This document shows positions 12,828 to 47,463 of a DNA stretch of 47,463 nt, piece after piece (position 1 is the stretch's first letter; the number at the start of each line of letters is the position of its first letter). Origin of the DNA: Chthoniobacterales bacterium. Its GTDB lineage: Bacteria > Verrucomicrobiota > Verrucomicrobiia > Chthoniobacterales > CAKUMP01. The stretch lies in contig JBGTCP010000593.1 in assembly GCA_041748815.1 (NCBI GenBank), positions 1 through 47,463 on the forward strand, read 5' to 3'. A program made the translations under genes and the position numbers. Under the pieces are notes generated by a model. It was not told the DNA's origin and searched no databases. It saw only the letters and a list, made by a program, of their open reading frames with translations.

Positions 12828-14803
12828 ACCACCAACCATTTGAATGGAATGCCGGAGCGCTTCTGCTCCGTTATGATGGGATGCTCCTCCAAGCAGAAGC
12901 ATGGGGTAAGGACAGCTTTCGTATCCGCGTCGGTCCGGCGGGTGTGATCACGGACAAGAATTGGGCACTGCTGCCGCCTCGCAGAACATATCGCGTGCGT
13001 CATGAGTTGCAGGAAAAATCTGCCACGCTGCACAATGGCAAAGCGCATCTCACGGTCCTGAGTGATGGTACATGGATCCTGAAAAATTCTGATGACCAGG
13101 TGCTTTTGCATCAGGAAAAAGTCGCTGCGTTCCTTTCTGCAGGAGGCGGACTTTATAAAATCGAAGCAAAATTTGCGGCGGTGCCGGATGAAAGAATTTA
13201 CGGTTTGGGCCAGCACCCACATGGATTTCTTGACCAAAAAGGATGCGTTATTCCTTTGGAGCAGAAAAACACGCAAGTCAGTATTCCGTTTTATATTTCC
13301 AGCCTGGGGTATGGATTTTTATGGAACAATCCGGCCATCGGTCAGGTCGAGCTTGCGAAAAACGGAACCCGCTGGGTTGCGGAAGCTTCGCCGGGATTGG
13401 ATTGCTGGATCACGGCAGCAGGAAGTTACAAGGACACGCTTGCCGCTTATGCGGAAGCCACTGGGCATGCGCCGCAGTTCCCGAGATGGGCGGAAGGCTT
13501 TTGGCAATGCAAGTTGCGCTATCGCTCACAGGATGAGTTGATGGCGGTCGCCCGGGAGTATCACCGGCGTGGGTTGCCGCTCTCGGTGATTGTGATAGAT
13601 TATTTTCATTGGACAGCAATGGGGGACTGGCAATTTGATCCGGTCGCGTGGCCTGATCCACCGGCAATGGTGCGGGAGCTGGCTGCCATGGGAGTGACTC
13701 TTATGGTTTCTGTCTGGCCAACCGTGAACGCGGTGAGCACCAATTTCCAGAAGATGCATGACAGCGGATTTCTGGTGAAGACGGCACGTGGAGTCCCTGC
13801 GGTTTCGCGATTCATTGATACTCATCCGGAAGGTCCCGTGTATTTGCACTTGTGCGACTCCACGCATCCCGGGGCACGGGAGTTTATGTGGAATGAAATC
13901 CGCAGCAATTACGTGAGTCATGGAATCAAAGCTTTCTGGCTAGATGCTTGCGAGCCGGAGATCAACCCGATGCATCACGATAATTTAGTCTACTATCTGG
14001 GTGAGGGAAATGCGGTCGGGTGCATCTATCCACTCGAACATGCGAAAGCGTTTCATGAAGGACTCACTCAAGCAGGTGAAAAAGAGATTCTGACGCTTTG
14101 CAGATCCGCCTGGGCAGGGAGCCAACGGTATGGTGCTGCAGTGTGGTCTGGCGACATCGCCTCAAGCTTTGAATCGCTGACCAAACAAGTGCGTGCAGGA
14201 CTCAGCATGGCCATGAGCGGGATCCCGTGGTGGACAGCGGACATCGGTGGATTTCACGGAGGAGACCCGGAGTCTCCGGAGTTTCGGGAACTGATTATAC
14301 GGTGGTTTCAGTATGGCCTTTTTTGTCCCATATTCCGGCTGCACGGCGTGCGCATCCCCGCTTCGCACACGGAAGGCGGACCAAATGAAATCTGGTCCTT
14401 CGGAGACGAGGCGCTGAGGGTTCTTTCAGGTCTGCTGCAGCTGCGTGAGGCATTGCGTCCTTATATCCGGCAGCAAATGCGCATCGCATCGCGCACCGGT
14501 CTGCCTCCCATGCGGCCTGTGTTTGTCGACTTCCCGCAGGATGCCAACGCGGCGCTGGTTGAAGATGCGTTTTTGTTTGGCGGCGATTTGCTCGTGGCAC
14601 CGGTGTTGGAAAAAGGGCAGCGGGAAAGTTCAGTCATCCTGCCGACCGATAGTGGAACCTCCACCCGCTGGATGGATGTGCGCACAGGTGAAACGCACAA
14701 GGGCGGGCAGAACATTCATGTTCATGCTCCGTTGTCCTCAATTCCGGTTTTCGTGAAAGCCGGCAGCGCATTGGAACGATTGAGCTGGAGTGCGATCCAA
14801 TAA
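12824..14803 (+). CDS. GH31 alpha-glycosidase (alpha-xylosidase / alpha-glucosidase type)
   Basis: IKAFWLDACEPE (nucleophile region) and AVWSGDI (acid/base region). 659 aa. ATGA overlap with the GH3 stop at 12824-12827. Confidence 0.9.
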   Translation: MNHQPFEWNAGALLLRYDGMLLQAEAWGKDSFRIRVGPAGVITDKNWALLPPRRTYRVRHELQEKSATLHNGKAHLTVLSDGTWILKNSDDQVLLHQEKVAAFLSAGGGLYKIEAKFAAVPDERIYGLGQHPHGFLDQKGCVIPLEQKNTQVSIPFYISSLGYGFLWNNPAIGQVELAKNGTRWVAEASPGLDCWITAAGSYKDTLAAYAEATGHAPQFPRWAEGFWQCKLRYRSQDELMAVAREYHRRGLPLSVIVIDYFHWTAMGDWQFDPVAWPDPPAMVRELAAMGVTLMVSVWPTVNAVSTNFQKMHDSGFLVKTARGVPAVSRFIDTHPEGPVYLHLCDSTHPGAREFMWNEIRSNYVSHGIKAFWLDACEPEINPMHHDNLVYYLGEGNAVGCIYPLEHAKAFHEGLTQAGEKEILTLCRSAWAGSQRYGAAVWSGDIASSFESLTKQVRAGLSMAMSGIPWWTADIGGFHGGDPESPEFRELIIRWFQYGLFCPIFRLHGVRIPASHTEGGPNEIWSFGDEALRVLSGLLQLREALRPYIRQQMRIASRTGLPPMRPVFVDFPQDANAALVEDAFLFGGDLLVAPVLEKGQRESSVILPTDSGTSTRWMDVRTGETHKGGQNIHVHAPLSSIPVFVKAGSALERLSWSAIQ

Positions 14804-14937
14804 GTCCGGGCTGCATTCCCGGAAGAAAAGCTGCAAAAAATTTGCTGATTTCCCGTTACCTGAACGGCAAATGTGAATTGCGAAAATATGCAGCGTGGAG
14901 ATAAATTCATCCTCGATCAACCCACCCCTGAAATCTA

Positions 14938-15849
14938 ATGAAAAACTCCCTCGTCCCTCTTTGTTCCATAGCAGCAATTGTCTCCATGGCGACTGTTTCG
15001 TTCACTGCAAACGCTGCTACGATTGTTGCCGATTTCAATAACTTGGATACCGGAATTCTGCGTGGGCAGGCGGGCGGGACCGGTTTCAGCGGAAATTGGC
15101 TTGGCAGCGCTGCGGGATCAAATCCGACCACACGCAACGTTGTGGTTGCCGGGAACCTGACATCCGCCAATTACACGCTCACCCAATCTGGAACAGCGCA
15201 AAGTGTTCAGTCCACGGATAAGCGTGAGGCGACGGATTCGCAGAATTACGTTGCGCTGGCAACACCACAGACAGGAATTGTGTGGTTCTCGTTTCTAGCG
15301 CAACTGACCGATGCTGAGGACCGGGTCGGCTTTAGTTTAAATGTCACCGGAAACACACCAGGGACAGGATCGAGGGATGCAGATTTTATTTTGGTGGGTG
15401 CGGCAGGCGGTGCCAGTAACTTCAGAACCCGGATTGGTGCAAATTCGGTGACCAATGCCACCAGCCTGAGCATTGGCACGACCTACCTAGTGCTCGCCCG
15501 CATCAACATCAATGCGACGGGAAATGATGCTCTGGACGTCTGGTTCAATCCGAACCTCACCTCCTACACCAGTGAGTCACAGTTCCTTGGAGCCGTGACG
15601 CCATCCTACTCAATTGGCACAGCGGACTGGGTGACGGGCAGCTCGATCTCAAACATTGGTGTGTTCAGTTACAACAATGGCGCAACCAATCCTGACGGCG
15701 GAATCATTGACGCCATCCGGATGAGCAATGATTCGGATGCCTTCTTCCAAGTCACTGGTGTGATTCCGGAGCCAGGCACTTCAATGCTCCTGCTCGGCGG
15801 TTTGGGAATGTTGGCTCTCCGTAGAAGGGCCACCTCACGCCGTAAATGA
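14938..15849 (+). CDS. Secreted LamG-like protein with PEP-CTERM sorting signal
   Basis: Signal peptide MKNSLVPLCSIAAIVSMATVSFTANA. C-terminus IPEPGTSMLLLGGLGMLALRRRATSRRK. Confidence 0.8.
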   Translation: MKNSLVPLCSIAAIVSMATVSFTANAATIVADFNNLDTGILRGQAGGTGFSGNWLGSAAGSNPTTRNVVVAGNLTSANYTLTQSGTAQSVQSTDKREATDSQNYVALATPQTGIVWFSFLAQLTDAEDRVGFSLNVTGNTPGTGSRDADFILVGAAGGASNFRTRIGANSVTNATSLSIGTTYLVLARININATGNDALDVWFNPNLTSYTSESQFLGAVTPSYSIGTADWVTGSSISNIGVFSYNNGATNPDGGIIDAIRMSNDSDAFFQVTGVIPEPGTSMLLLGGLGMLALRRRATSRRK

Positions 15850-33895: not shown

Positions 33896-34495
33896 TTAAG
33901 ATCCGCGTTGAGGTGCAACGAGCGTTTCGAGAGCGTTTGCGTAATGATCCAGTGCGTCCGCCTGTGGGATTTGTATTAATTCAGAGAGCTTTTGGTGCAT
34001 TTCGAACGCCCTTGCGCAAAACGGCCTGATTGAGTCCTGATTGACAAGAATTCTGACTTTCCTACTTCTCTTCTTTCGCAGCACGCGAAGCGGTTCGCAG
34101 CTGCATGCTGCGATCATTTGCAGGTTCGCCTGGTCCCGGAGATCGCAAAAATAGAACCAGTACGGACATAACGCGACCACCCCCGAGAAGAATGCCCTTA
34201 TTTCCGGCACCTCATAGACTTCCCGCTGGTCACCATCAAATCCCTGGATCGCAAACCGTATATTACACCGAAGTTCACGAATATGGGAATGGTCCTGCTT
34301 GTATTCTAGAAAATTTTTAATGAGTTCAATCCGGTTTTCTGTAATCATTTGGTGGCCTATCACGAAATATACCGGTGGTGGATCGGTCCATGATCCGCGC
34401 TCGACCTGTTTCTGCATCCACTTCTGCTTGCCATATCCGGCTGGCAGATCCCAGATCAAATCACCATCACTGCTATGTGCAATTGTGAACATCAT
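33896..34495 (-). CDS. Hypothetical protein translationally coupled to the sigma-like gene
   Basis: The start at MMFTIAHSS (34495) forms an ATGA overlap with the stop of the upstream gene (34492-34495). No recognisable motifs. Confidence 0.55.
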   Translation of the reverse strand: MMFTIAHSSDGDLIWDLPAGYGKQKWMQKQVERGSWTDPPPVYFVIGHQMITENRIELIKNFLEYKQDHSHIRELRCNIRFAIQGFDGDQREVYEVPEIRAFFSGVVALCPYWFYFCDLRDQANLQMIAACSCEPLRVLRKKRSRKVRILVNQDSIRPFCARAFEMHQKLSELIQIPQADALDHYANALETLVAPQRGS

Positions 34496-35178
34496 TCCCT
34501 CCCCTCCATGGCTTGCACAATCCGGCGAACTACAGGAAGTGCACGGGCCTCGCGCTGGCACGCCGCCTGACGGCTCATGGTCAATTGCTCGCCTGCTTCG
34601 GATTGCGTCAGCCCATCTTCAATTTGCAGACGCAGTATCTCGGCATCGATGCGATCTATCCTATTCTGAGCCAAAGCCTGGAGCAGCGCGGTAAGTGCAA
34701 CTTCCTTCAACCCTTCCGCCTCAGTCAACGACGCATCACTTTTCAGACGTTGTGTGAGTTCATCTTGCAGTTTTCTCTCAGCCATGTTTCGGCGTGCATG
34801 CTCCGAAAGACGCCGTGCCACCGAGAATCGGAGTGCCGAATTGATGGTCAGCAGCAGAGCCCGTTCGACATGCTCTGTAGCTTTACTACGCGTTGCCAGG
34901 GTTAATATTTTGCTTCCAGCAAGGTGGCTTTGATGCAACAGAATCAGTGCATCCTGACACACTTCTTCGAGGAGAGTAGGCGCAATATTCATTGAGCGAA
35001 TGCGTGGTTTCCATTGTGCGATGAATGCGGCTAGCATCTGAAAAAAATCATCTTCGCTTATGGCATCTCCGCTCCCGCTCTGAATTGCGATCCAATGTTG
35101 AGCGAGTTCCTGGAGCGATGGGTTGGCCAGCCAATCTTGGCTGGATGGACTGTTAGTATGTGTTGGTTTCATATTCAC
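34492..35178 (-). CDS. Sigma-70 family (ECF-like) RNA polymerase sigma factor
   Basis: Region-2-like LLEEVCQDALILLHQ and region-4 HTH LRLQIEDGLTQSEAGEQLTMSRQAACQREARAL. 228 aa. Confidence 0.6.
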   Translation of the reverse strand: MNMKPTHTNSPSSQDWLANPSLQELAQHWIAIQSGSGDAISEDDFFQMLAAFIAQWKPRIRSMNIAPTLLEEVCQDALILLHQSHLAGSKILTLATRSKATEHVERALLLTINSALRFSVARRLSEHARRNMAERKLQDELTQRLKSDASLTEAEGLKEVALTALLQALAQNRIDRIDAEILRLQIEDGLTQSEAGEQLTMSRQAACQREARALPVVRRIVQAMEGRE

Positions 35179-35283: not shown

Positions 35284-35514
35284 ATGAGCAAAAATCTCGA
35301 CCTTTCCCTTGCGCTCGTCCGCGATGCTGCTGCATCTCGGGGCGATTCACATAATTCGATCGACGAAGCAGTAGGGGCGATCTGCCGCGCACTTCATGAG
35401 ATCACGAGCGATGAGACTGATAGCGACACGCTTCTTGAGAAGTTTACCATTGTCGCTGCATCGGCCTTGGTTGCCATTGAGCATCTCATCGAGACAGAAC
35501 AGGAGGAAGACTAA
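35284..35514 (+). CDS. Small acidic hypothetical protein (76 aa)
   Basis: First ORF of the plus-strand chain. Its stop overlaps the next start (TAATG at 35512-35516). An AGGAGGA Shine-Dalgarno for the next gene lies inside its 3' end. Confidence 0.45.
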   Translation: MSKNLDLSLALVRDAAASRGDSHNSIDEAVGAICRALHEITSDETDSDTLLEKFTIVAASALVAIEHLIETEQEED

Positions 35515-36893
35515 TGAAGGGGGCCTGGACCAAAGAGGAGTTCGAGGAGACATTGCGTTTGCTTGGGATGGGATTGACGCCTGCCCAGATCGGGCGCAGT
35601 CTCGGACGTTCGGAAACCGCTGTGCGGCTAAAAGTCATCAAGGCTGGATATTCCTCCCGCGTGGTAGATCCGGGGGCAGCAAAGCCGTCATCATCATCTC
35701 TGGAAGGGGATGGATCAACTCCTGCTAACCCTGCTCCACGGTCTGAGCCCAGTGCGGGGGGTGAAACATTTCATTCCGGAGTATCTCTCGAGGCTGCCCA
35801 TGAATTGCTGGATATGCGGGACGAACGAACACGCAACCGTCGCGAACGTGCAGAGGCTATTGAAATCGCTCAGCGTGATCGGTTGCTCGATATTTTCAGG
35901 GAAGCCGTTTCAGGTTGCCTCATTGATTACAGGATTCACCCGCCGCAGCGCTCGGCACCGCAGCCGACCTCAGCGCACGCGGCAGTGCTGCTGCTCGGCG
36001 ATCTTCATGTTGGCAAGGTTTGCTCGGAGGCAGAAACCGAAGGACGTGCAATTTATAATCCCGCACATTTCGTCGCCCGACTCGCTCTGCTTGAGAGGGA
36101 AGTCCTGCAATTGATTGAGGACGGTCCAGCAGTCGATGAACTTGTCATCCTCTTTCTGGGAGATGTGGTGGAAGGCCATTTGGATCATGGCGCAGAGAAG
36201 GAAGATAATCTTTTAATTTCCCACCAATTTGTGTTGGCGACGCACCTGCTCTCACAATTCCTGTTGAGAGTCGCTAGTTCTGTCGAGACGGTGCGGGTAT
36301 ATGGGGTCGGTGGCAACCATGCCCGCTGGCCGGGACAGAGACGTCCACCCACGGTCGGGCGCGAGAGCAACCTCGACCACCTTGTTTATCGTGGGATTGA
36401 AATGATCGTGGAAATGGCGGATGCCAAACATATCCGGTTTTGTCTCAGTGAGGCTCCACGGCAGACTTTACAGGTCAAGACATCCACCATCGCTCTGCTA
36501 CACGGGGATCAAATCAGGGGAGGGGATTTCTACGTGAACGGCATCAAGCGAGAGGTATTCTCTTCGGTTCTCCGCCATGCGCCAAGCGGGAACATGCCAG
36601 ATATCTGGATCGCCGGCGACAAACACGTTCCGCAGTCTATGAGTGTTGGTTTAGGCCGCTGGTTGATCAATGGATCATTTGTGGGAGAAGACACTTTTGG
36701 TCAAAACTTTTCTCCCGCCAGCGCATCCCAAACTCTGCTTTGGATTTGTCCAAGTAAGGGCAAGTTCCTTCAAGCCGAGATCCGCCTGGATGGAGCCGTT
36801 CCAAGTGATCCCCAGCCGTATCATTTGAGCGCGAAACTCACTGAACTCATATCACCATTCGTCCGTCAAAACACCATCTATGAAAACAACTGA
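35514..36893 (+). CDS. Myb/SANT-like HTH fused to a calcineurin-type metallophosphoesterase
   Basis: N-terminus AWTKEEFEETLRLLGMGLTPAQIGRSLGRSETAVRLKV. Phosphoesterase motifs are LLLGDLHVG, LFLGDVVEGH, GVGGNHARW, ALLHGDQ and IAGDKH. Confidence 0.75.
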   Translation: MKGAWTKEEFEETLRLLGMGLTPAQIGRSLGRSETAVRLKVIKAGYSSRVVDPGAAKPSSSSLEGDGSTPANPAPRSEPSAGGETFHSGVSLEAAHELLDMRDERTRNRRERAEAIEIAQRDRLLDIFREAVSGCLIDYRIHPPQRSAPQPTSAHAAVLLLGDLHVGKVCSEAETEGRAIYNPAHFVARLALLEREVLQLIEDGPAVDELVILFLGDVVEGHLDHGAEKEDNLLISHQFVLATHLLSQFLLRVASSVETVRVYGVGGNHARWPGQRRPPTVGRESNLDHLVYRGIEMIVEMADAKHIRFCLSEAPRQTLQVKTSTIALLHGDQIRGGDFYVNGIKREVFSSVLRHAPSGNMPDIWIAGDKHVPQSMSVGLGRWLINGSFVGEDTFGQNFSPASASQTLLWICPSKGKFLQAEIRLDGAVPSDPQPYHLSAKLTELISPFVRQNTIYENN

Positions 36894-37311
36894 AACCCAC
36901 CACCAAACACTCCTCGCCTTGGCCCGGATGCCGCAGGCCGAATTCCTTGATGTCCTATCGCGGGCAAAGCAACTCTACTCACTGCTTTATGCTGAAGCGG
37001 AGTCCGGCGCTCGGCATTCCGAAGATCACGCAGACCCGCGAGGTCCGGGCATTCCGGAATCTCCGGAGGGGATTCGTCGGCGTCCTCAAATGAGGGATCC
37101 TGCACCAGGTTCGCTGCGAGAAACCGTTTATGAGATTTTGCAGCGGCAGGGAGGCCCCATCCAGCGGAAGGAAATCATTGAGCAAGTTGCGGCCATGCGC
37201 GGCGTTCCGGTTTCAGAGAGCTTGAAAGCGGCCACTGGGGAAGTTTTGCGCAATCAGCACGATCCCCACATCAGGCGTGTGGCCACTGGTATTTACGCAT
37301 TAGCCGCATGA
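36880..37311 (+). CDS. HARE-HTH domain protein
   Basis: C-terminal LRETVYEILQRQGGPIQRKEIIEQVAAMRGV...HIRRVATGIYALA fits the HARE-HTH pattern (RpoE-delta/restriction-associated wHTH). 14-nt overlap with the upstream gene. Confidence 0.6.
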   Translation: MKTTETHHQTLLALARMPQAEFLDVLSRAKQLYSLLYAEAESGARHSEDHADPRGPGIPESPEGIRRRPQMRDPAPGSLRETVYEILQRQGGPIQRKEIIEQVAAMRGVPVSESLKAATGEVLRNQHDPHIRRVATGIYALAA

Positions 37312-37655
37312 GGCGAAAGAAACGGGTTCGTTGTTTCCAGGTATGTCGCGAAGTGCGGGGAACGTGGTTTATCGTGGGGTACTGCTCGGGATGGGAGGTT
37401 GATTTTCCGAATTTTATCTTGCTGTCATATCCCTTCAAACGGGAGGAATTTCATTCGCCGCTTGGCAGCATTTCCTGCAGGAGTAAATGGACAGGGTCTT
37501 CAAGGCTTCCTGCACAAACCCATATTATCGATCCGATCCGGCCACAACCTTGGATGGAGATAGAGTATCACGACTTGATGGTAGTGACCGAACTGGTGGA
37601 GTCCCTCGGCCTCGACCTCCCTGAAGATGGCTTTCGCAGACACAGTTCGTCATGA
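37308..37655 (+). CDS. Hypothetical 115-aa ORF bridging the HARE-HTH and ATPase genes
   Basis: ATGA overlaps at both ends (37308-37311 and 37652-37655). The composition is Cys/Arg/Trp-rich and not obviously protein-like, so this could instead be a spacer. Confidence 0.35.
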   Translation: MRRKKRVRCFQVCREVRGTWFIVGYCSGWEVDFPNFILLSYPFKREEFHSPLGSISCRSKWTGSSRLPAQTHIIDPIRPQPWMEIEYHDLMVVTELVESLGLDLPEDGFRRHSSS

Positions 37656-38533
37656 ATTCGCCACGCATTTACAGCTATCAGCACCCCGTTTTTCATGCTT
37701 TGCATGCCACGGCTCGTGTGTTCTTCGGAGGCGCATGGCGATCCCTTCCGGTGCTTCCACGATTTGCCCGGTTTGTGTCTGGACCGACGGGGGCCGGGAA
37801 GTCGCACGTAGTGCGGGAACTTGCCCGGGTTTTGCGCATACCTATCCTTCAGCTCTCGGCTAGTGCGTGGATCCCCCTTGGAGCGAACCGCCGCGGCGCA
37901 GAGGTGACTTGGGTGGACGTGGCTGCTTTTTGCGGGCGAAATCCCCGTGGGATAATTCTGATCGACGAATTGGATAAAGTGCGTGGCGAGTCTCCGTGGC
38001 TGGACGCAATTCGTCCGGAAATTTTCAGCTTGATTGACGGCATTTTTCCTGAACCCGCATTGATCGGAGACGAGGAAAATACTTTTTCGGACAACCCCAT
38101 CGAGAGGGAGAAAATAGTGTGTAGACTCGCTGGAAGCATGCTTGTGATCGGGGCCGGTGCATTTCAATCAGCTTGGGAGCCACAGGCTGGCGTGCTGGGA
38201 TTTCACCCCACAGGGCTTTCGTCCGAGGCTGCGGTTGATCACAAAGTGATGGCTGAGGAAATACCCCGTGAAATTGCGAACCGATTCGTGGCTCCGATTC
38301 TCTGCCTGCCTCAGTTGTGTGAAGAAGATTACCGCTCAATGCTGGATGAAGTGGTCGGGCATCTGCCGCCTGAGTTGGCCACGTCCGTGCAGCGGGTGGC
38401 GCTGAACTCCCTGCATGAGGCAGTCGATCATGCGATGGGGGCAAGGTGGATTCAGCAATCTTTACTCCATGCATTGATCGAGATAGAGGCAGTGGTTGAT
38501 CGTGAATTCACAACGCCTGCCCCGGATTTGTAG
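37652..38533 (+). CDS. ClpX/HslU-like AAA+ ATPase module without N-terminal zinc-binding domain
   Basis: Walker A FVSGPTGAGKSHVVRELARVL, Walker B GIILIDELDKV. MLVIGAGAFQS...GFHP parallels ClpX ILFICGGAF...IGF. EIPREIANRFVAPILCLPQLCEEDYRSML parallels ClpX LIPEFIGRLPV...L. Confidence 0.8.
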   Translation: MNSPRIYSYQHPVFHALHATARVFFGGAWRSLPVLPRFARFVSGPTGAGKSHVVRELARVLRIPILQLSASAWIPLGANRRGAEVTWVDVAAFCGRNPRGIILIDELDKVRGESPWLDAIRPEIFSLIDGIFPEPALIGDEENTFSDNPIEREKIVCRLAGSMLVIGAGAFQSAWEPQAGVLGFHPTGLSSEAAVDHKVMAEEIPREIANRFVAPILCLPQLCEEDYRSMLDEVVGHLPPELATSVQRVALNSLHEAVDHAMGARWIQQSLLHALIEIEAVVDREFTTPAPDL

Positions 38534-38595: not shown

Positions 38596-38784
38596 TCATT
38601 CCCCTCGCGGGAATGCCGTTATCCATAGCACCACAAGGCATTCCAGCAGCATGGCTACAACGTAGCAAAGCACGCTCAGAATTCCGGCCACTACGCCGAT
38701 GCTTATCTGGCAAATGCTCAGCCCAACCTGGGTGAATGCCCGCAGCACCAGCACGGCAACCACGATTTGAATAATAATGATCAT
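38596..38784 (-). CDS. Small (62 aa) two-TM hydrophobic protein on the opposite strand
   Basis: MIIIIQIVVAVLVLRAFTQVGLSICQISIGVVAGILSVLCYVVAMLLECLVVLWITAF. GGAG lies 8 nt upstream of the ATG on the minus strand (GGAGAAACACCAATG). Confidence 0.4.
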   Translation of the reverse strand: MIIIIQIVVAVLVLRAFTQVGLSICQISIGVVAGILSVLCYVVAMLLECLVVLWITAFPRGE

Positions 38785-38949: not shown

Positions 38950-40053
38950 ATGGCACAAAAAACTAAAATTCAATGGTGTGACTCGACGATTAATCCGGTG
39001 ATGGGTTGCGGCGGGTGCGAACTCTATATCTCTCCTGGGGAAATCCTTGCTCATCTCGATCTGGAGATGGCGGGGCATGGCGCATGGCCACAGGGCACGA
39101 GTAGAGATATCTACAGGCAACTGATCACGGAAACATACGAGCGGATCGCCAATCTGATGCCCGGACATTCCAAGTCACTAACCACGACGAATATTTATCA
39201 TTTGCGTAAAGAGTTCCTTGCTGAGGTGGCATCAGGGCTTGGCAAAAAAGCATCCATAGCTGCTGAGCGGGTGATTGGCGAGTCGATCGCATGTTATGCG
39301 GCTAAAAATCACCTCAGCAAAGCACGCTCCATCGTGAACCCCGGGCGTGGTTTTAATACCGGATATGCACCAGCGTTTGAGATGGTGACGCGATTTGAAG
39401 ACCGGGTTTGCAAAGCTGCACTTTACCGCGATCTCCGTGGTCAATCTCGTGCCGACAAGCCGTGGCTCGACGACCTTCCCCGACACATTTTTGTCAGCGA
39501 TATGGGTGACGCCTTTTCGCGGGAGTCCGATTTTGAATTCCTCGAAAAGGAGGTCATCGAACCAATCCGCTCTGTTAGTGGCCAGCGTCACCGTTGGCTT
39601 TGGCTGACCAAGCGTCCGGATCGGATGGAGCGCTTCGGTGAACGGATCAACGGTTTCCCTCCCAACGTGATTGCTATGACCACCCTCACTGGGCCAGGCA
39701 CGCTTAACCGGGTCGATCAACTTCGTCGTGTTTCGGCGGCAAAACGAGGGCTCTCCATTGAGCCGCTCAGGCAAAGAATTTGCGCTTCAGAACTCGACCT
39801 GTCGGGCATCGATTGGGTGATTGTTGGGGGAGAAAGTGGTCGACGCGAACACGTCTGTCCATTCGATCTGGACTGGGCTCGCGAACTCCGCGACCACTGC
39901 CAAGTGAGCGGCGCGGCGTTTTTCTTGAAGCAACTTGGCCGTCGTCCGGTGGAGACTGGCAAGGAGTTCCGATTTCACGATAGTCACGGCGGTGAGTGGG
40001 ACGAGTGGCCGGAAGATCTCAGGTTCCGGGAAATGCCTCTCATTTCCACATAA
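38950..40053 (+). CDS. Phage Gp37/Gp68 family (DUF5131) protein
   Basis: The start MAQKTKIQWCDSTINPVMGCGGCELY matches the family N-terminus (IEWTD.TWNP..GC....GC..CY). The C-terminal DWVIVGGESG block is also typical. The upstream 61 codons of the ORF-track ORF are rejected. Confidence 0.75.
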   Translation: MAQKTKIQWCDSTINPVMGCGGCELYISPGEILAHLDLEMAGHGAWPQGTSRDIYRQLITETYERIANLMPGHSKSLTTTNIYHLRKEFLAEVASGLGKKASIAAERVIGESIACYAAKNHLSKARSIVNPGRGFNTGYAPAFEMVTRFEDRVCKAALYRDLRGQSRADKPWLDDLPRHIFVSDMGDAFSRESDFEFLEKEVIEPIRSVSGQRHRWLWLTKRPDRMERFGERINGFPPNVIAMTTLTGPGTLNRVDQLRRVSAAKRGLSIEPLRQRICASELDLSGIDWVIVGGESGRREHVCPFDLDWARELRDHCQVSGAAFFLKQLGRRPVETGKEFRFHDSHGGEWDEWPEDLRFREMPLIST

Positions 40054-42340: not shown

Positions 42341-43564
42341 ATGAGTCATCTTTTAGACCAACTTAATCCCAGAATCATTGGGGAAAAACTTCGCATTGCG
42401 CGAACGACGTGCGGGATCCGCCAGGAAGACGCGGCTGAACATATCGGCGTTGCTCGAACCACTATAGTTGCGATGGAGAAAGGCGAACGCCGGGTCAAGG
42501 CACGCGAACTGCAACTTTTGGCGGATTTATATGGCAATTCGATTCATGATTTAATGGATGAGGAGAAAAAGATTGTCGCATTGAGTCCCCAGTTCCGAAG
42601 CCCCCCCAAAGGACTGAACCTTGCCGCAGATGAAATTTTCCATGTCGCGCAGGAGTTGGAGGAGTTTGCCAAGGATTACCATGAACTGGAAAGTCTTACG
42701 GGCTCCCAGATGGTGCAGCGCTATCCTTCAGTTTATCGATACGATATTCCGGGTGTATCTGTGGAACTGCGTGGAGAAGAAATTGCCGGTGAGGAACGAA
42801 CCCGCCTGGGTCTTGGGGATGCACCGATTCTGGACTTGCGCGGTCTCTTGGAAGACTCGGTTGGCTTGCGGATTTTTTATCCCGAGCTTCCCTCACAAGT
42901 GGGCGGAATTTATGCATTCAACGAGGAGCTTGGCGGCTGTATTGCGATCAATCGAAAGCATCCTCCAGCACGAGCGGTGTGGTCTTTGGCTCATGAGTAT
43001 GGTCATTTTCTCACGACTCGAACTTCCGCAGATGTCAGCTTTTGGGACGAGCAAGGCTGGGGACGAAATATGGCGGAACGTTTTGCCGACGCATTTGCCC
43101 GGAATTTTTTGATGCCGCGATCAGGAGTGAACCGTCAGCTCAGTGAATTGGTTGCCTTGCACGGGAAGGGGATCACCGCAGCGGATATATTGATTCTCTC
43201 GCAGAATTTTCGGGTTTCTACGGAGGCCATGTTCCGACGCCTTGAAGAGTTGCGACGACTACCTTCGGGAACGTGGGACAACCTAATCGCCCAAAAATTT
43301 AAGCCCGAACAGGCAAAAAAGACCTTGGGGCTTCAGCCCGCCCTCCAGAAGGAGCCGTTGCTGCCGCTTCGATACCGAATGCTGGCCAAGGCCGCCTTCG
43401 ATCTGGAAGATGGTATTACGGAATCACAATTTTCCAAATATCTTCATCTAGACCTTGTTGCTGCACGGCAAGAACTGGATGAATTGCGGGCTGCTTCCGA
43501 TAAAAGAAGTGAGGATGGCTTTATTCCGTTTGATATTGGCACCCGTATTCTCGTTCCTGCCTGA
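42341..43564 (+). CDS. XRE-family HTH fused to an ImmA/IrrE-type zinc metallopeptidase (COG2856-like)
   Basis: HTH IGEKLRIARTTCGIRQEDAAEHIGVARTTIVAMEKGER. HEXXH motif LAHEYGHFL. Confidence 0.85.
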   Translation: MSHLLDQLNPRIIGEKLRIARTTCGIRQEDAAEHIGVARTTIVAMEKGERRVKARELQLLADLYGNSIHDLMDEEKKIVALSPQFRSPPKGLNLAADEIFHVAQELEEFAKDYHELESLTGSQMVQRYPSVYRYDIPGVSVELRGEEIAGEERTRLGLGDAPILDLRGLLEDSVGLRIFYPELPSQVGGIYAFNEELGGCIAINRKHPPARAVWSLAHEYGHFLTTRTSADVSFWDEQGWGRNMAERFADAFARNFLMPRSGVNRQLSELVALHGKGITAADILILSQNFRVSTEAMFRRLEELRRLPSGTWDNLIAQKFKPEQAKKTLGLQPALQKEPLLPLRYRMLAKAAFDLEDGITESQFSKYLHLDLVAARQELDELRAASDKRSEDGFIPFDIGTRILVPA

Positions 43565-44311: not shown

Positions 44312-45154
44312 ATGACACCACTCCAAAACATTCTCGACTCATACAGAAGCACCTCACAAACCGAGCGGGAAAAAGGCACTTATTTCGAGGAACTCATCCG
44401 CACTTATTTTCGGTATGAAGCCAGTTACGCCGACCTGTACAGCGAAATATGGCTCTTTGCTGATTGGGCCAGGGAAATCGGAACCCCTCAGTTCGGCATA
44501 TCCGCTAAGGATTCCGGTATCGACCTCGTTGCCAGGACCCATGGCACCGAGGAATACCACGCCATCCAGTGCAAATGCTACGCGCCAGATTATCGCGTGC
44601 GAAAGGCCGACATCGACAGCTTCTTCACCGCCTCCGGACGCAAGCCCTTTACTCAGCGCATCATTGTCACCACCACCAATGATTGGAGCGAACACGCCGA
44701 GAATGCACTCAAAGAACAGCAACCGCCTGTTTACAAGATCGATCTCCATGATTTAGAAGTCAGCCAGATTGATTGGGCGAAGTATCAGCCCAGTGCCCCG
44801 CCAGCGCTGAAGCCCAAGTATCCACTTTTGCCCCACCAAACCAGCGCCCGCACTCATGTGATGTTGGGATTCAAATCTGCAGATCGAGGCAAGCTCATCA
44901 TGGCCTGCGGCACCGGTAAGACTTTTACCAGCCTCAAGATCGCTGAGGAAGCTGCAGGTAAGGGCAAACTCGTCCTTTTTCTCGTTCCCAGCCTGAACCT
45001 TCTTTCCCAGACTCTTACCGAGTGGACCCAGCAAAGCTCCCTTCCGCTGCACAGCTTTGCCGTTTGCTCCGATGCTGAGGTGGGCAAGAAACGTGACGCT
45101 AATGAGGACATCGTGGAAACTTTCTCTCACGAACTGCGTTATCTTTTTACGTGA
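44312..45154 (+). pseudogene. 5' fragment of an Mrr-nuclease + SF2 helicase restriction gene (type ISP-like or related large helicase-methylase)
   Basis: Mrr/PD-(D/E)xK-like GIDLVARTH...YHAIQCK, then LLPHQ and helicase motif I ACGTGKTFTS. The frame ends after 280 aa, right after motif Ia, whereas such proteins exceed 1000 aa. Confidence 0.75.
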
Positions 45155-46287: not shown

Positions 46288-47237
46288 GAGGTGGCGGGCT
46301 TAAATGAGGCTTTGGCTTCGGGTGTGAAAACCAACTCAAACCGCTTTACAATATGGGCATGGGCCTCATCTAGCAAGTTGATTATCCGATCTGGATCCGC
46401 CGGAAATTCCCCGACTATCCGCACCACAAAGTCAACCAACACTGCCGCTCCGGTTGTGTGAGTGAGACAGTCTTTGACGGTAAGTTGCAGAGTGGCACCT
46501 GGAGGGCCCACTAAACGGACCGTGGCTGTGCAATCGAGTGGGGGCATGAGACATTCGTGTTCGCCTGGAATGTGGGCAAAGACCGTGATCACTTGTCCAA
46601 GTTTCAGATTGCCCTCGGAGTCGTGAAAATCGGGCACCGTGATGCGGGATAATGCATTTACGTAGTGCAGGGTGATATAGCGAATTTTCCCGACCTCGAA
46701 ATGCCGTAGCCAACGCGGAAGCCATTTTGAATATTCGTCTCGAAGGTTAGAATACCGCCGGGATCCCCCCTGAGCTGGGTTCGAGTGCATGTTCATCGTG
46801 AACTGACCAACCGGGCATCGTAAGCTCCAATCAAACCCCTGTTGGCTCGACTTGCGGGAGAACCGGGGCGTGACCTTCAAGATTGGTTCGGTCGAATCAA
46901 AGACGGGAATTCTTTCCTCGGTCACCTCCTTGACGTTGATTTGCCAGTCCTTCAAAGGCTCATACACCGGAAAGTCTGCTTGCACCATCGACCGCCAGTC
47001 CTCGAAGAGCGACTCAAACGTCTCTTCCGTCATGTCGCCATAGACACTTGCCACCCGCTCGATAATTGGAGGATTCTGGTAATAAGCTGGGTGCTCGACT
47101 GGATTCATAAAACTTACAGCAATAAGAGCATTGTGCTTGGCAAAGTGCTGAATAGCAAGCGTCCGGGCCAGAGCTTTGGCGGCGTGTTTTCGCGAGCAAG
47201 CGATCTGAGCAAGGCGTGGGGTCTTGGGGTTAGTCAT
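46284..47237 (-). CDS. TIGR04255-like conserved hypothetical protein
   Basis: YYQNPPIIERVASVYGD resembles the Y.N.P..E motif near the N-terminus of TIGR04255-family proteins. The likely true start is at 47108 (MNPVEHPAYYQNPP). Confidence 0.5.
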   Translation of the reverse strand: MTNPKTPRLAQIACSRKHAAKALARTLAIQHFAKHNALIAVSFMNPVEHPAYYQNPPIIERVASVYGDMTEETFESLFEDWRSMVQADFPVYEPLKDWQINVKEVTEERIPVFDSTEPILKVTPRFSRKSSQQGFDWSLRCPVGQFTMNMHSNPAQGGSRRYSNLRDEYSKWLPRWLRHFEVGKIRYITLHYVNALSRITVPDFHDSEGNLKLGQVITVFAHIPGEHECLMPPLDCTATVRLVGPPGATLQLTVKDCLTHTTGAAVLVDFVVRIVGEFPADPDRIINLLDEAHAHIVKRFELVFTPEAKASFKPATS

Positions 47238-47298
47238 GCTTTTTTACGATTCATCGCGTGGCCTTGCAATCCTTGTGTCGGGCGAGTAGTTTTGTAGC

Positions 47299-47463
47299 AT
47301 GACACTTACTCTTGAACTGCCTGACCGGGTTGCGGCTTTGTTGCAAGGCTCCTGGGACGATTTGCAGCGTGCCACGCTGGAAAGTCTTGCGGTGGAAGGA
47401 TACCGCAGCGGCAAACTCTCCTGCTCACAGGTGGGCGAAATACTTGGATTCAGTTCCCGCTGG
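47299..47463 (+). CDS. UPF0175-family antitoxin-like protein, 5' part (runs off the window)
   Basis: MTLTLELPDRVAALLQGSWDDLQRATLESLAVEGYRSGKLSCSQVGEILGFSSRW. The EGYR.GK.S...(A/V)GE.LG.S pattern is typical of UPF0175. The frame is open to the window end. Confidence 0.5.
   Translation, partial: MTLTLELPDRVAALLQGSWDDLQRATLESLAVEGYRSGKLSCSQVGEILGFSSRW

Follow-up and report, generated by a model that had tools for sequence, protein, structure and literature searches.

ClpX normally takes its specificity from a zinc domain, from RKH loops and from adaptors, and HslU, which is not known to have an IGF-type loop, docks by its C-terminus. A mycobacteriophage metallophosphoesterase (MPE), gp48, has been reported to damage host DNA and to blunt defence (PMC12287305). 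Here, I describe a block of genes from a Chthoniobacterales bacterium in which a ClpX-derived AAA+ ATPase stands beside a putative phosphoesterase and two further small proteins. The block lies on contig JBGTCP010000593.1 of assembly GCA_041748815.1, and the stretch analysed, hereafter the window, spans the whole contig, 47,463 nucleotides (nt). The find is novel both for the presence of a ClpX-derived ATPase in an uncharacterised, putative mobile-element module and for a new small protein family; full-text literature searches returned no description of such a ClpX-like ATPase-phosphoesterase module.

The genes of the block are real, conserved together and patchily distributed. The reading preferred here, with a probability of about 0.45, is that they form an accessory module, with the chain from the phosphoesterase to the ATPase as its core, on integrative, mobilisable, relaxase-bearing Verrucomicrobiota elements, serving conflict or maintenance, and that the ATPase is linked to ClpP. 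As delimited here, the module would comprise two genes (a 221-amino-acid (aa) protein and a sigma-like regulator) divergent from an operon of five open reading frames (ORFs), and then a DUF5131 gene. The four genes from 35514 to 38533 are given as in the ORF list; HTH stands for helix-turn-helix.

33896-34561, minus strand: 221-aa protein (cluster c5), function not assigned, divergent from the operon and part of the conserved block
34492-35178, minus strand: 228-aa sigma-70 region-4-type HTH regulator (cluster c4), divergent from the operon
35284-35514, plus strand: 76-aa helical ORF, sharing 1 nt with the phosphoesterase gene (TAATG)
35514-36893, plus strand: 459-aa HTH-metallophosphoesterase
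36880-37311, plus strand: 143-aa winged-helix (HARE-HTH-like) protein
37308-37655, plus strand: 115-aa small beta-barrel protein
37652-38533, plus strand: 293-aa ClpX-derived AAA+ ATPase
38950-40053, plus strand: DUF5131 (Gp37/Gp68-type) protein (Pfam PF07505, E 9e-41; PADLOC PDC-M41B/M30B)

The comparisons draw on 57 family loci (the window, L005-L008, L165-L212, L255-L257 and L259). Scans with an alignment of ATPase relatives gave 4 close genomic loci, all in Verrucomicrobiota metagenome-assembled genomes (MAGs), and 48 metagenome loci (L165-L212); L255-L257 were fetched from sampled genomes of the phylum, and L259 is contig C415 of the source genome itself. Gene content was scored with profile hidden Markov models (HMMs) built from gene clusters of ATPase-family loci. 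Many of the 57 are short contigs, and the near-identical L171 and L172 are counted separately.

The ATPase and its partner proteins

The 293-aa ATPase has its Walker A motif at residues 44-51, Walker B at 101-109, the sensor-1 GAGAF at 167-171, an LGF tripeptide at 182-184 and the sensor-2 arginine at 265. The strings GPTGAGKS, IILIDELDK, GAGAF and GARW, all aligned with motifs of ClpX, show no variation in 11 of 11 close homologues; those quoted in an earlier reading of this DNA, made without database searches (hereafter the original prediction), namely GPTGAGKS, ILIDELDK, GAGAF and GF, are all present in the translation. Pfam recognises a generic AAA domain only, and the NCBIfam ClpX models score far below their cut-offs (NF003745, 20.3 bits versus 359; TIGR00382, 16.7 versus 370.75). 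A profile search of the PDB with 11 ATPase homologues aligns residues 41-279 to ClpX chains, and Foldseek, started from an AlphaFold2 (AF2) model with a predicted local distance difference test score (pLDDT) of 77.3 and disordered loops at 77-83 and 175-196, has ClpX alone among the matches listed (E 1.8e-9 to 3.9e-8). ClpX ORFs reach at most 36 bits against the window ATPase in phmmer, and in a quick maximum-likelihood tree, the careful search not having finished, a single branch with SH-aLRT 100 separates 42 family rows from 30 ClpX rows, cellular as well as from viral contigs. By alignment and tree, the family is a clade separate from ClpX that branched off the ClpX lineage and has kept its ATPase motifs intact.

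The zinc-binding domain is absent, as the original prediction had it and as comparison with the ClpX of the same genome confirms: Walker A starts after 43 residues and there is no cysteine cluster. The pore-1 tip reads G-A-N-R-R-G, with x-R-G in place of the Y-V-G of ClpX, an eight-residue gap lies opposite the ClpX pore-2 region SITRDVSG, and RKH is missing opposite ClpX GGRKHPQQ. Motif counts were made on 42 distinct family members, each of at least 250 aa; among these the pore-1 tip is aromatic in a single one and carries R-G in 29. Two independent alignments place the window LGF opposite the VGF of the genome's own ClpX and the LGF of M. tuberculosis ClpX, and an xGF occupies this ClpP-docking position in 41 of the 42 members (x being I in 19, L in 10, V in 4, M in 4, A in 3 and T in 1); in the window ATPase it lies within a 22-residue loop that is modelled with low confidence by AF2, as in ClpX. 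As far as alignment goes, [ILVM]GF at the ClpP-docking position of ClpX is conserved across the family. The original prediction had treated the ATPase as an orphan, which in the sense of acting without ClpP is not supported: the loop is conserved, and one related element (locus L193) bears a ClpP of its own. It had also named two marks of an ordinary ClpX, a docking loop and a place among canonical ClpX sequences: the first is present at the level of sequence, and the second is contradicted by the branch with SH-aLRT 100.

The source genome encodes a full ClpX on contig C572 (610 bits, with the zinc domain CSFCGK...CDSC and GYVG) and a ClpP on contig C379, and has also a second ClpX-like gene. 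Within the window, Pfam detects no ClpP in the 15 larger ORFs between 25346 and 47237 or in the 76-aa and 115-aa ORFs, the first 25 kb not having been scanned. Long antisense ORFs run across the ATPase gene in the window (37568-38167, minus strand, 199 aa) and in L255 (4670-5833, minus strand, 387 aa); they are probably a by-product of the codon composition of the ATPase gene, since the conserved frame is the sense frame.

The 459-aa protein combines an HTH (residues 4-51, approximately), a charged helical linker and a metallophosphoesterase domain (approximately 124-443). Residues 100-411 match phrog_284, 'exonuclease', at E 6.6e-38; Pfam Metallophos (PF00149) gives 18.6 bits, below its cut-off of 21.5, and 27.4 bits, above it, for the homologue in L165. 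In 8 of 8 homologues there is no change in the metal-binding motifs D163-x-H165, G216-D217, G267-N268-H269, H330-G331-D332 and K370-H371, the last of which takes the form G[DH]KH. By sequence nothing in the PDB matches below E 0.17, and tblastn retrieves 161 phage records with relatives at 21-31% identity, none covering 80% of the query, whose annotations (exonuclease, DNA repair nuclease, calcineurin-like phosphoesterase, PolII small subunit) are names and not assays. The N-terminal 50 residues or so form an HTH conserved among the homologues; direct matches are weak (phrog_323, E 0.0027, residues 4-51; GcrA chain 7ye1_G, E 0.6), HTH_38 and Terminase_5 give matches in two homologues, and an HTH is likely. 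From its motifs, the protein looks like a catalytically intact phosphoesterase tethered to DNA. Of the earlier name, Myb-HTH phosphoesterase, the intact-looking phosphoesterase and the HTH are retained; the weak HTH matches do not establish Myb.

In the 143-aa protein a disordered linker joins an N-terminal helix to a C-terminal winged helix. It matches Pfam WH_Rok at E 2.8e-4, below the cut-off, and HARE-HTH (PF05066) at E 0.14, with 13 bits versus a cut-off of 25.9 and over profile positions 1-32 only; its nearest named clusters in the ESM-Atlas are HARE-HTH (0.90 and 0.89), and seven aligned homologues share the invariant core PGS-R...HD...G-Y. A comparison set for HARE-HTH in 41 genomes of relatives yielded no match above the cut-off. 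A HARE-HTH is likely here, and the original assignment remains plausible on the ESM-Atlas neighbours, if not by the Pfam threshold.

The 115-aa ORF had been offered with some reserve and is a real gene: homologues with 26-35% identity occupy the same position in related loci, with good start sites in the relatives, and the family has 55 representatives at E<=1e-3 (42 at E<=1e-10) among 1.84 billion clustered proteins, nearly all of 100-120 aa and sharing the motifs G[YF]C, CRG, PWM and GFRR. The AF2 model, with a mean pLDDT of 93.0, folds eight strands into a small barrel followed by a C-terminal helix. Foldseek finds no match at E<=0.001 (best PDB E 0.25); a wide VIA-align search peaks at Z 4.9 (Sm-like 3by7), with WYL and SH3-like barrels lower, in a range below 8 that is common for unrelated folds according to the tool's own note. 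No family was found in Pfam, NCBIfam, PHROG or PADLOC, and the best ESM-Atlas hits (0.87) are unrelated phage clusters. Judged from the model, this is a new small beta-barrel family with no clear fold match. The predicted complex of the ATPase with the 115-aa protein scored 0.00 in two runs, which gives no verdict and is uninformative either way. In locus L007 a weak homologue (14662-14973, minus strand, E 2.5e-6) lies away from the ATPase, flanked by a small gene of c15 type and by a short phosphoesterase, a placement hinting that the 115-aa protein may act with the phosphoesterase instead of, or besides, the ATPase.

The original prediction had read the four genes from the phosphoesterase to the ATPase as a translationally coupled chain with overlap at every junction. 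All four ORFs are there, with overlaps of 14, 4 and 4 nt, and the fifth, the 76-aa ORF, adds an overlap of 1 nt. The 14-nt overlap of the 459-aa and 143-aa genes is ATGAAAACAACTGA; both 4-nt overlaps, 143-aa/115-aa and 115-aa/ATPase, are ATGA. Among the operon genes a Shine-Dalgarno-like run, AGGAGGAAG, is clear ahead of the 459-aa gene only, which fits coupled translation of the genes 3' of it, and such coupling is plausible from the layout. The stoichiometric co-expression that the original prediction drew from the overlaps goes further than this layout shows. Scans around the operon returned promoter and terminator counts no higher than in shuffles and no repeats; the window holds no Rfam family and no tRNA.

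The flanking genes carry weaker family signals. Crr6, the sole Pfam match of the 221-aa protein, is weak and below its cut-off; the 228-aa regulator matches Sigma70_r4 (E 1.7e-6, 27.9 bits versus a cut-off of 24.1), and its relatives also match Sigma70_r4_2 and KORA. The 76-aa ORF has no match in Pfam, NCBIfam, PADLOC or PHROG. At its position an ORF family of 84-122 aa, c28, occurs in L006, L165, L167, L169, L170, L171 and L255; the likeness is by eye only, the c28 HMM having missed the window copy. For DUF5131, the literature search led to a radical-SAM resource. A gap of 416 nt separates the ATPase gene from the DUF5131 gene, and within it lies a very hydrophobic 62-aa ORF (38596-38784, minus strand) with no family match, which could be a small membrane peptide or chance.

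Recurrence of the block and its probable mobile-element setting

The gene order recurs beyond chance. Phosphoesterase, winged helix, 115-aa homologue and ATPase follow one another in 9 of the 57 loci (the window, L006, L165, L169, L170, L171, L172, L174 and L255), and incomplete versions are found on the short contigs L005, L166 and L173; in eight relatives the end of the 115-aa homologue falls anywhere from 4 nt past the beginning of the ATPase match to about 35 nt ahead of it. What the original prediction missed is the larger conserved block, with the sigma-like regulator (homologues in 11 of the 57 loci), the 221-aa protein (7, mostly adjoining the sigma-like gene) and DUF5131 (adjoining the ATPase or its partner gene in 11, on either side), and likewise its setting among relaxases, integrases and defence cargo.

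A phosphoesterase of any of three subfamilies is present in 20 loci, and the ATPase keeps different company in different subgroups. In the window-type subgroup the winged-helix and 115-aa genes lie upstream of it. In a second subgroup (18 loci) an unrelated 265-aa protein, c1, adjoins it, the gene being upstream except in L194 and L195, where it is just downstream. In a third, an ATPase with a longer N-terminus adjoins a short phosphoesterase. An origin of c1 by fusion of the 143-aa with the 115-aa protein was considered and rejected (hhalign probability 0.1 for each). In L007 and L176 one element holds both the regulator-phosphoesterase part and the partner-ATPase part, several kb apart and separated by other genes.

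The ATPase family is rare. An index of 5.8 billion proteins holds 12 other relatives of the window ATPase at E<=1e-3, with 44-49% identity, one of them named as a Verrucomicrobiota MAG, and of 400 other genomes sampled from the phylum, 3 contain family members at E<=1e-25. Viral contigs contain no family member, their best relative being 20-22% identical and scored as ClpX. On these searches, the ATPase is the founder of a rare family, so far found in Verrucomicrobiota and metagenomes only. Multiple copies occur: L008 and L212 have three paralogues (454, 334 and 508 aa) within 6 kb, plus a methyltransferase, and contig C415 of the source genome (L259, 4603-6042, minus strand) encodes a second member of 479 aa, with a 230-aa N-terminal extension and the W..G and LGF features of the window ATPase. 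The C415 gene has a tyrosine integrase next to it and is flanked by a ThiF-JAB protein on one side and a BREX cluster (BrxA, BrxB, BrxC) on the other.

Several loci point to mobile elements, and the conserved block looks horizontally mobile. A TrwC relaxase adjoins the block in L007 and in L171/L172, and integrases abut ATPase-phosphoesterase pairs in L209, L256 and L259. Just downstream of the ATPase of L193 (1102-4829), within at most 4 kb, are a type IV coupling protein, a CLP_protease (PF00574, 158 bits), a HAD_SAK_2 protein and a phosphoesterase, the CLP_protease being 2.3 kb from the ATPase and beside the coupling protein and the phosphoesterase. As to the window itself, its last 231 bases (47233-47463) correspond to positions 168-398 of C585, a 6.9-kb contig of the source genome, at 94.8% identity; C585 encodes a DUF3368 protein, a TrwC relaxase and a tyrosine integrase. 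This suggests that the island of the window continues into the TrwC and integrase of C585, and the mismatches in the overlap point to variants among strains or to two related elements within the sample. No att sites came to light.

The defence cargo beside the block varies from locus to locus: CBASS with HORMA, a Trip13-like AAA and a Cap17-like N domain in L165; HipA, HNH with AAA_21 and a C5 methylase in L170; a TOTE AEP-helicase in L174; type I restriction-modification with TIR in L182; a short prokaryotic Argonaute (pAgo) with TIR-APAZ in L183; and BREX in L259 (C415). The window carries DUF5131, a QatC-like protein, an HTH-M78 protein and a fragment of an Mrr-type nuclease. Between 38950 and 42314, a 227-aa ORF comes after DUF5131 and overlaps, at its stop, with the start of a 491-aa QueC-like protein; the latter scores 185.6 bits against QatC NF041925 (cut-off 280) and E 7.5e-55 against PADLOC QatC, no QatA- or QatD-like gene was seen, and the locus is possibly a Qat-related variant with other partners. 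The next gene (42341-43564) encodes a 407-aa XRE-type HTH fused to Peptidase_M78 (ImmA/IrrE-like), an architecture found in regulators of phage and element induction. Further on (44312-45154), a 280-aa ORF with Mrr_cat_2 (E 4e-45), in which a ResIII helicase domain breaks off after its first half, looks like a shortened or frameshifted restriction gene.

What the block may do

If the block is a module of such elements, lying beside the slot in which they hold defence cargo, the ATPase would form a ClpX-like hexamer docking on ClpP, either that of the host or, in some elements, one borne by the element. The winged-helix and beta-barrel proteins would serve it as specificity factors, and with them it would remove or remodel a particular DNA-bound protein, the HTH-phosphoesterase cutting or trimming nucleic acid in the same transaction. 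The purpose might be to counter defences on entry, to exclude rivals, or to govern how the element's own DNA is processed; I infer that it is not cellular protein quality control. A more specific version, unlikely in this full form, makes the ATPase the element's reprogrammed ClpX: a ClpP-docked ring would have exchanged the parts that grip substrate (zinc domain, RKH, pore tyrosine) for an arginine pore and DNA-binding helpers encoded by the element, and, with the protease of the host or one carried along, would degrade one particular protein of host or rival bound to DNA, or strip it off, such as a restriction or defence enzyme caught on DNA, and the tethered phosphoesterase would process the DNA, the whole amounting to proteolytic counter-defence or exclusion through a hijacked ClpP.

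A number of points weigh against the preferred reading. The 231-bp overlap at 94.8%, on which the window's link with a relaxase depends, could be a junction between related elements or between strains. Loci L183-L187 have no relaxase or integrase within 8 kb and have defence systems as neighbours, which fits a stand-alone defence system equally well. A ClpP gene is present in only 1 of the 57 loci (L193). Classical threading of polypeptide into ClpP is doubtful, because the pore-1 aromatic (1 of 42 members) and the pore-2 loop are absent, and the xGF loop could serve a partner other than ClpP. Both ClpP binding and phosphoesterase activity are read from motifs, and the role of the two small proteins as specificity factors from gene position.

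A possible, if unlikely, account that survives best among the alternatives takes the block as a stand-alone anti-phage or anti-plasmid defence system for which the mobile element is just the carrier: winged helix and HTH would sense foreign DNA, the AAA+ ring would be the switch or motor and the metallophosphoesterase the effector. The patchy distribution (3 of 400 genomes) and the defence genes adjoining most long loci suit it, as do the minimal integrase-ATPase-phosphoesterase islands L256 and L209; moreover, c11-type phosphoesterases beside long family ATPases match the PADLOC candidate PDC-S10 (E about 1e-9), whereas the five operon proteins of the window match no PADLOC 2.0 family at E<=0.01. 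The two halves of the block standing kb apart in L007 and L176 suit backbone genes better than one operon, and from locus to locus it is the defence neighbours that vary, the partners (sigma-like gene, c5, DUF5131, relaxase) being constant.

It is also improbable that the ATPase is a remodeller of DNA or nucleoprotein acting independently of ClpP, which was the original interpretation. Here the arginine pore loop would grip nucleic acid or a DNA-bound protein and xGF would contact a co-encoded protein, a view that accommodates the pore (x-R-G tip in 29 of 42, no aromatic in 41 of 42, pore-2 deleted, RKH absent), the hallmarks of DNA binding or DNA cutting in three of the partner proteins, and the lack of a ClpP gene in the scanned part of the window and in 56 of the 57 loci. 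Against it stands xGF, which is better conserved than any other loop feature of the family and coincides with the ClpP-docking position; the tripeptide stays constant while the upstream partner changes (115-aa versus 265-aa), and this speaks for an unchanging partner, for instance ClpP.

The view that the ATPase is just another ClpX, engaged in housekeeping or stress proteolysis, for which the nearest fold and sequence relatives (ClpX) and the docking-type loop might speak, is excluded for practical purposes, as the original prediction had also supposed: the genome already has its full 610-bit ClpX, the window ATPase reaches 20 bits versus 359 and falls outside the group of 30 ClpX sequences in the tree, the zinc domain, GYVG, pore-2 and RKH are all absent, and the family sits on mobile and defence islands and occurs in so few other genomes of the phylum.

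Comparison with known systems

The block extends the parts list of the poorly charted Verrucomicrobiota mobile elements and their defence-cargo hotspots by a small beta-barrel family, an HTH-tethered phosphoesterase and a recurrent ATPase-phosphoesterase pairing. With the phage MPEs of PHROG 284 and the MPE nucleases of the Mre11/SbcD/PolD-DP1 type, the 459-aa protein shares the domain match and all five metal-binding motifs, whereas the N-terminal HTH and the charged linker are specific to its own group. Mycobacteriophage gp48 (PMC12287305) is a functional parallel to the 459-aa protein only, with no kinship implied. The last 65 residues of the 143-aa protein line up with the beginning of the HARE-HTH model (PF05066); in contrast to HARE-HTH domains fused to enzymes it is free-standing, and WH_Rok scores better.

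McrBC and IetA of ietAS resemble the block in the way they may work only, in that defence islands encode an AAA+ ATPase together with DNA-binding parts and an effector of nuclease type. Other family members match IetA weakly (E 1e-5 to 4e-8) and over the Walker region only, whereas the window ATPase has no PADLOC match and the effector of the block is a metallophosphoesterase; the AAA+ clade of the ATPase I take to be ClpX-like, not McrB-like. With HslU the ATPase shares an HCLR-type AAA+ core, and its sensor-1 string GAGAFQ presumably resembles that of HslU, but the NCBIfam match is weak (TIGR00390, 15.9 bits versus a cut-off of 362.45), no HslU is among the Foldseek matches listed, and the family has a ClpX-like inserted xGF loop.

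ClpX remains the closest comparison. In this family a natural lineage has dropped the zinc domain, RKH and the pore tyrosine and has nevertheless preserved the tripeptide for docking on ClpP. Should the ring dock on ClpP, it would show mobile elements redirecting a host protease, and mechanistic studies would gain a minimal ClpX of natural origin; otherwise, the IGF-type loop would have a second, so far undescribed use. ClpX and the family both have the large and small AAA+ subdomains, Walker A and B, sensor-1 (GAGAF in the family, GGAF in ClpX), the sensor-2 arginine and a flexible loop with [ILVM]GF at the ClpP-docking position. The family differs from ClpX in that it lacks the zinc domain, Y-V-G, eight pore-2 residues and RKH, and in that it forms a separate clade with a patchy distribution on mobile elements and with other neighbours.

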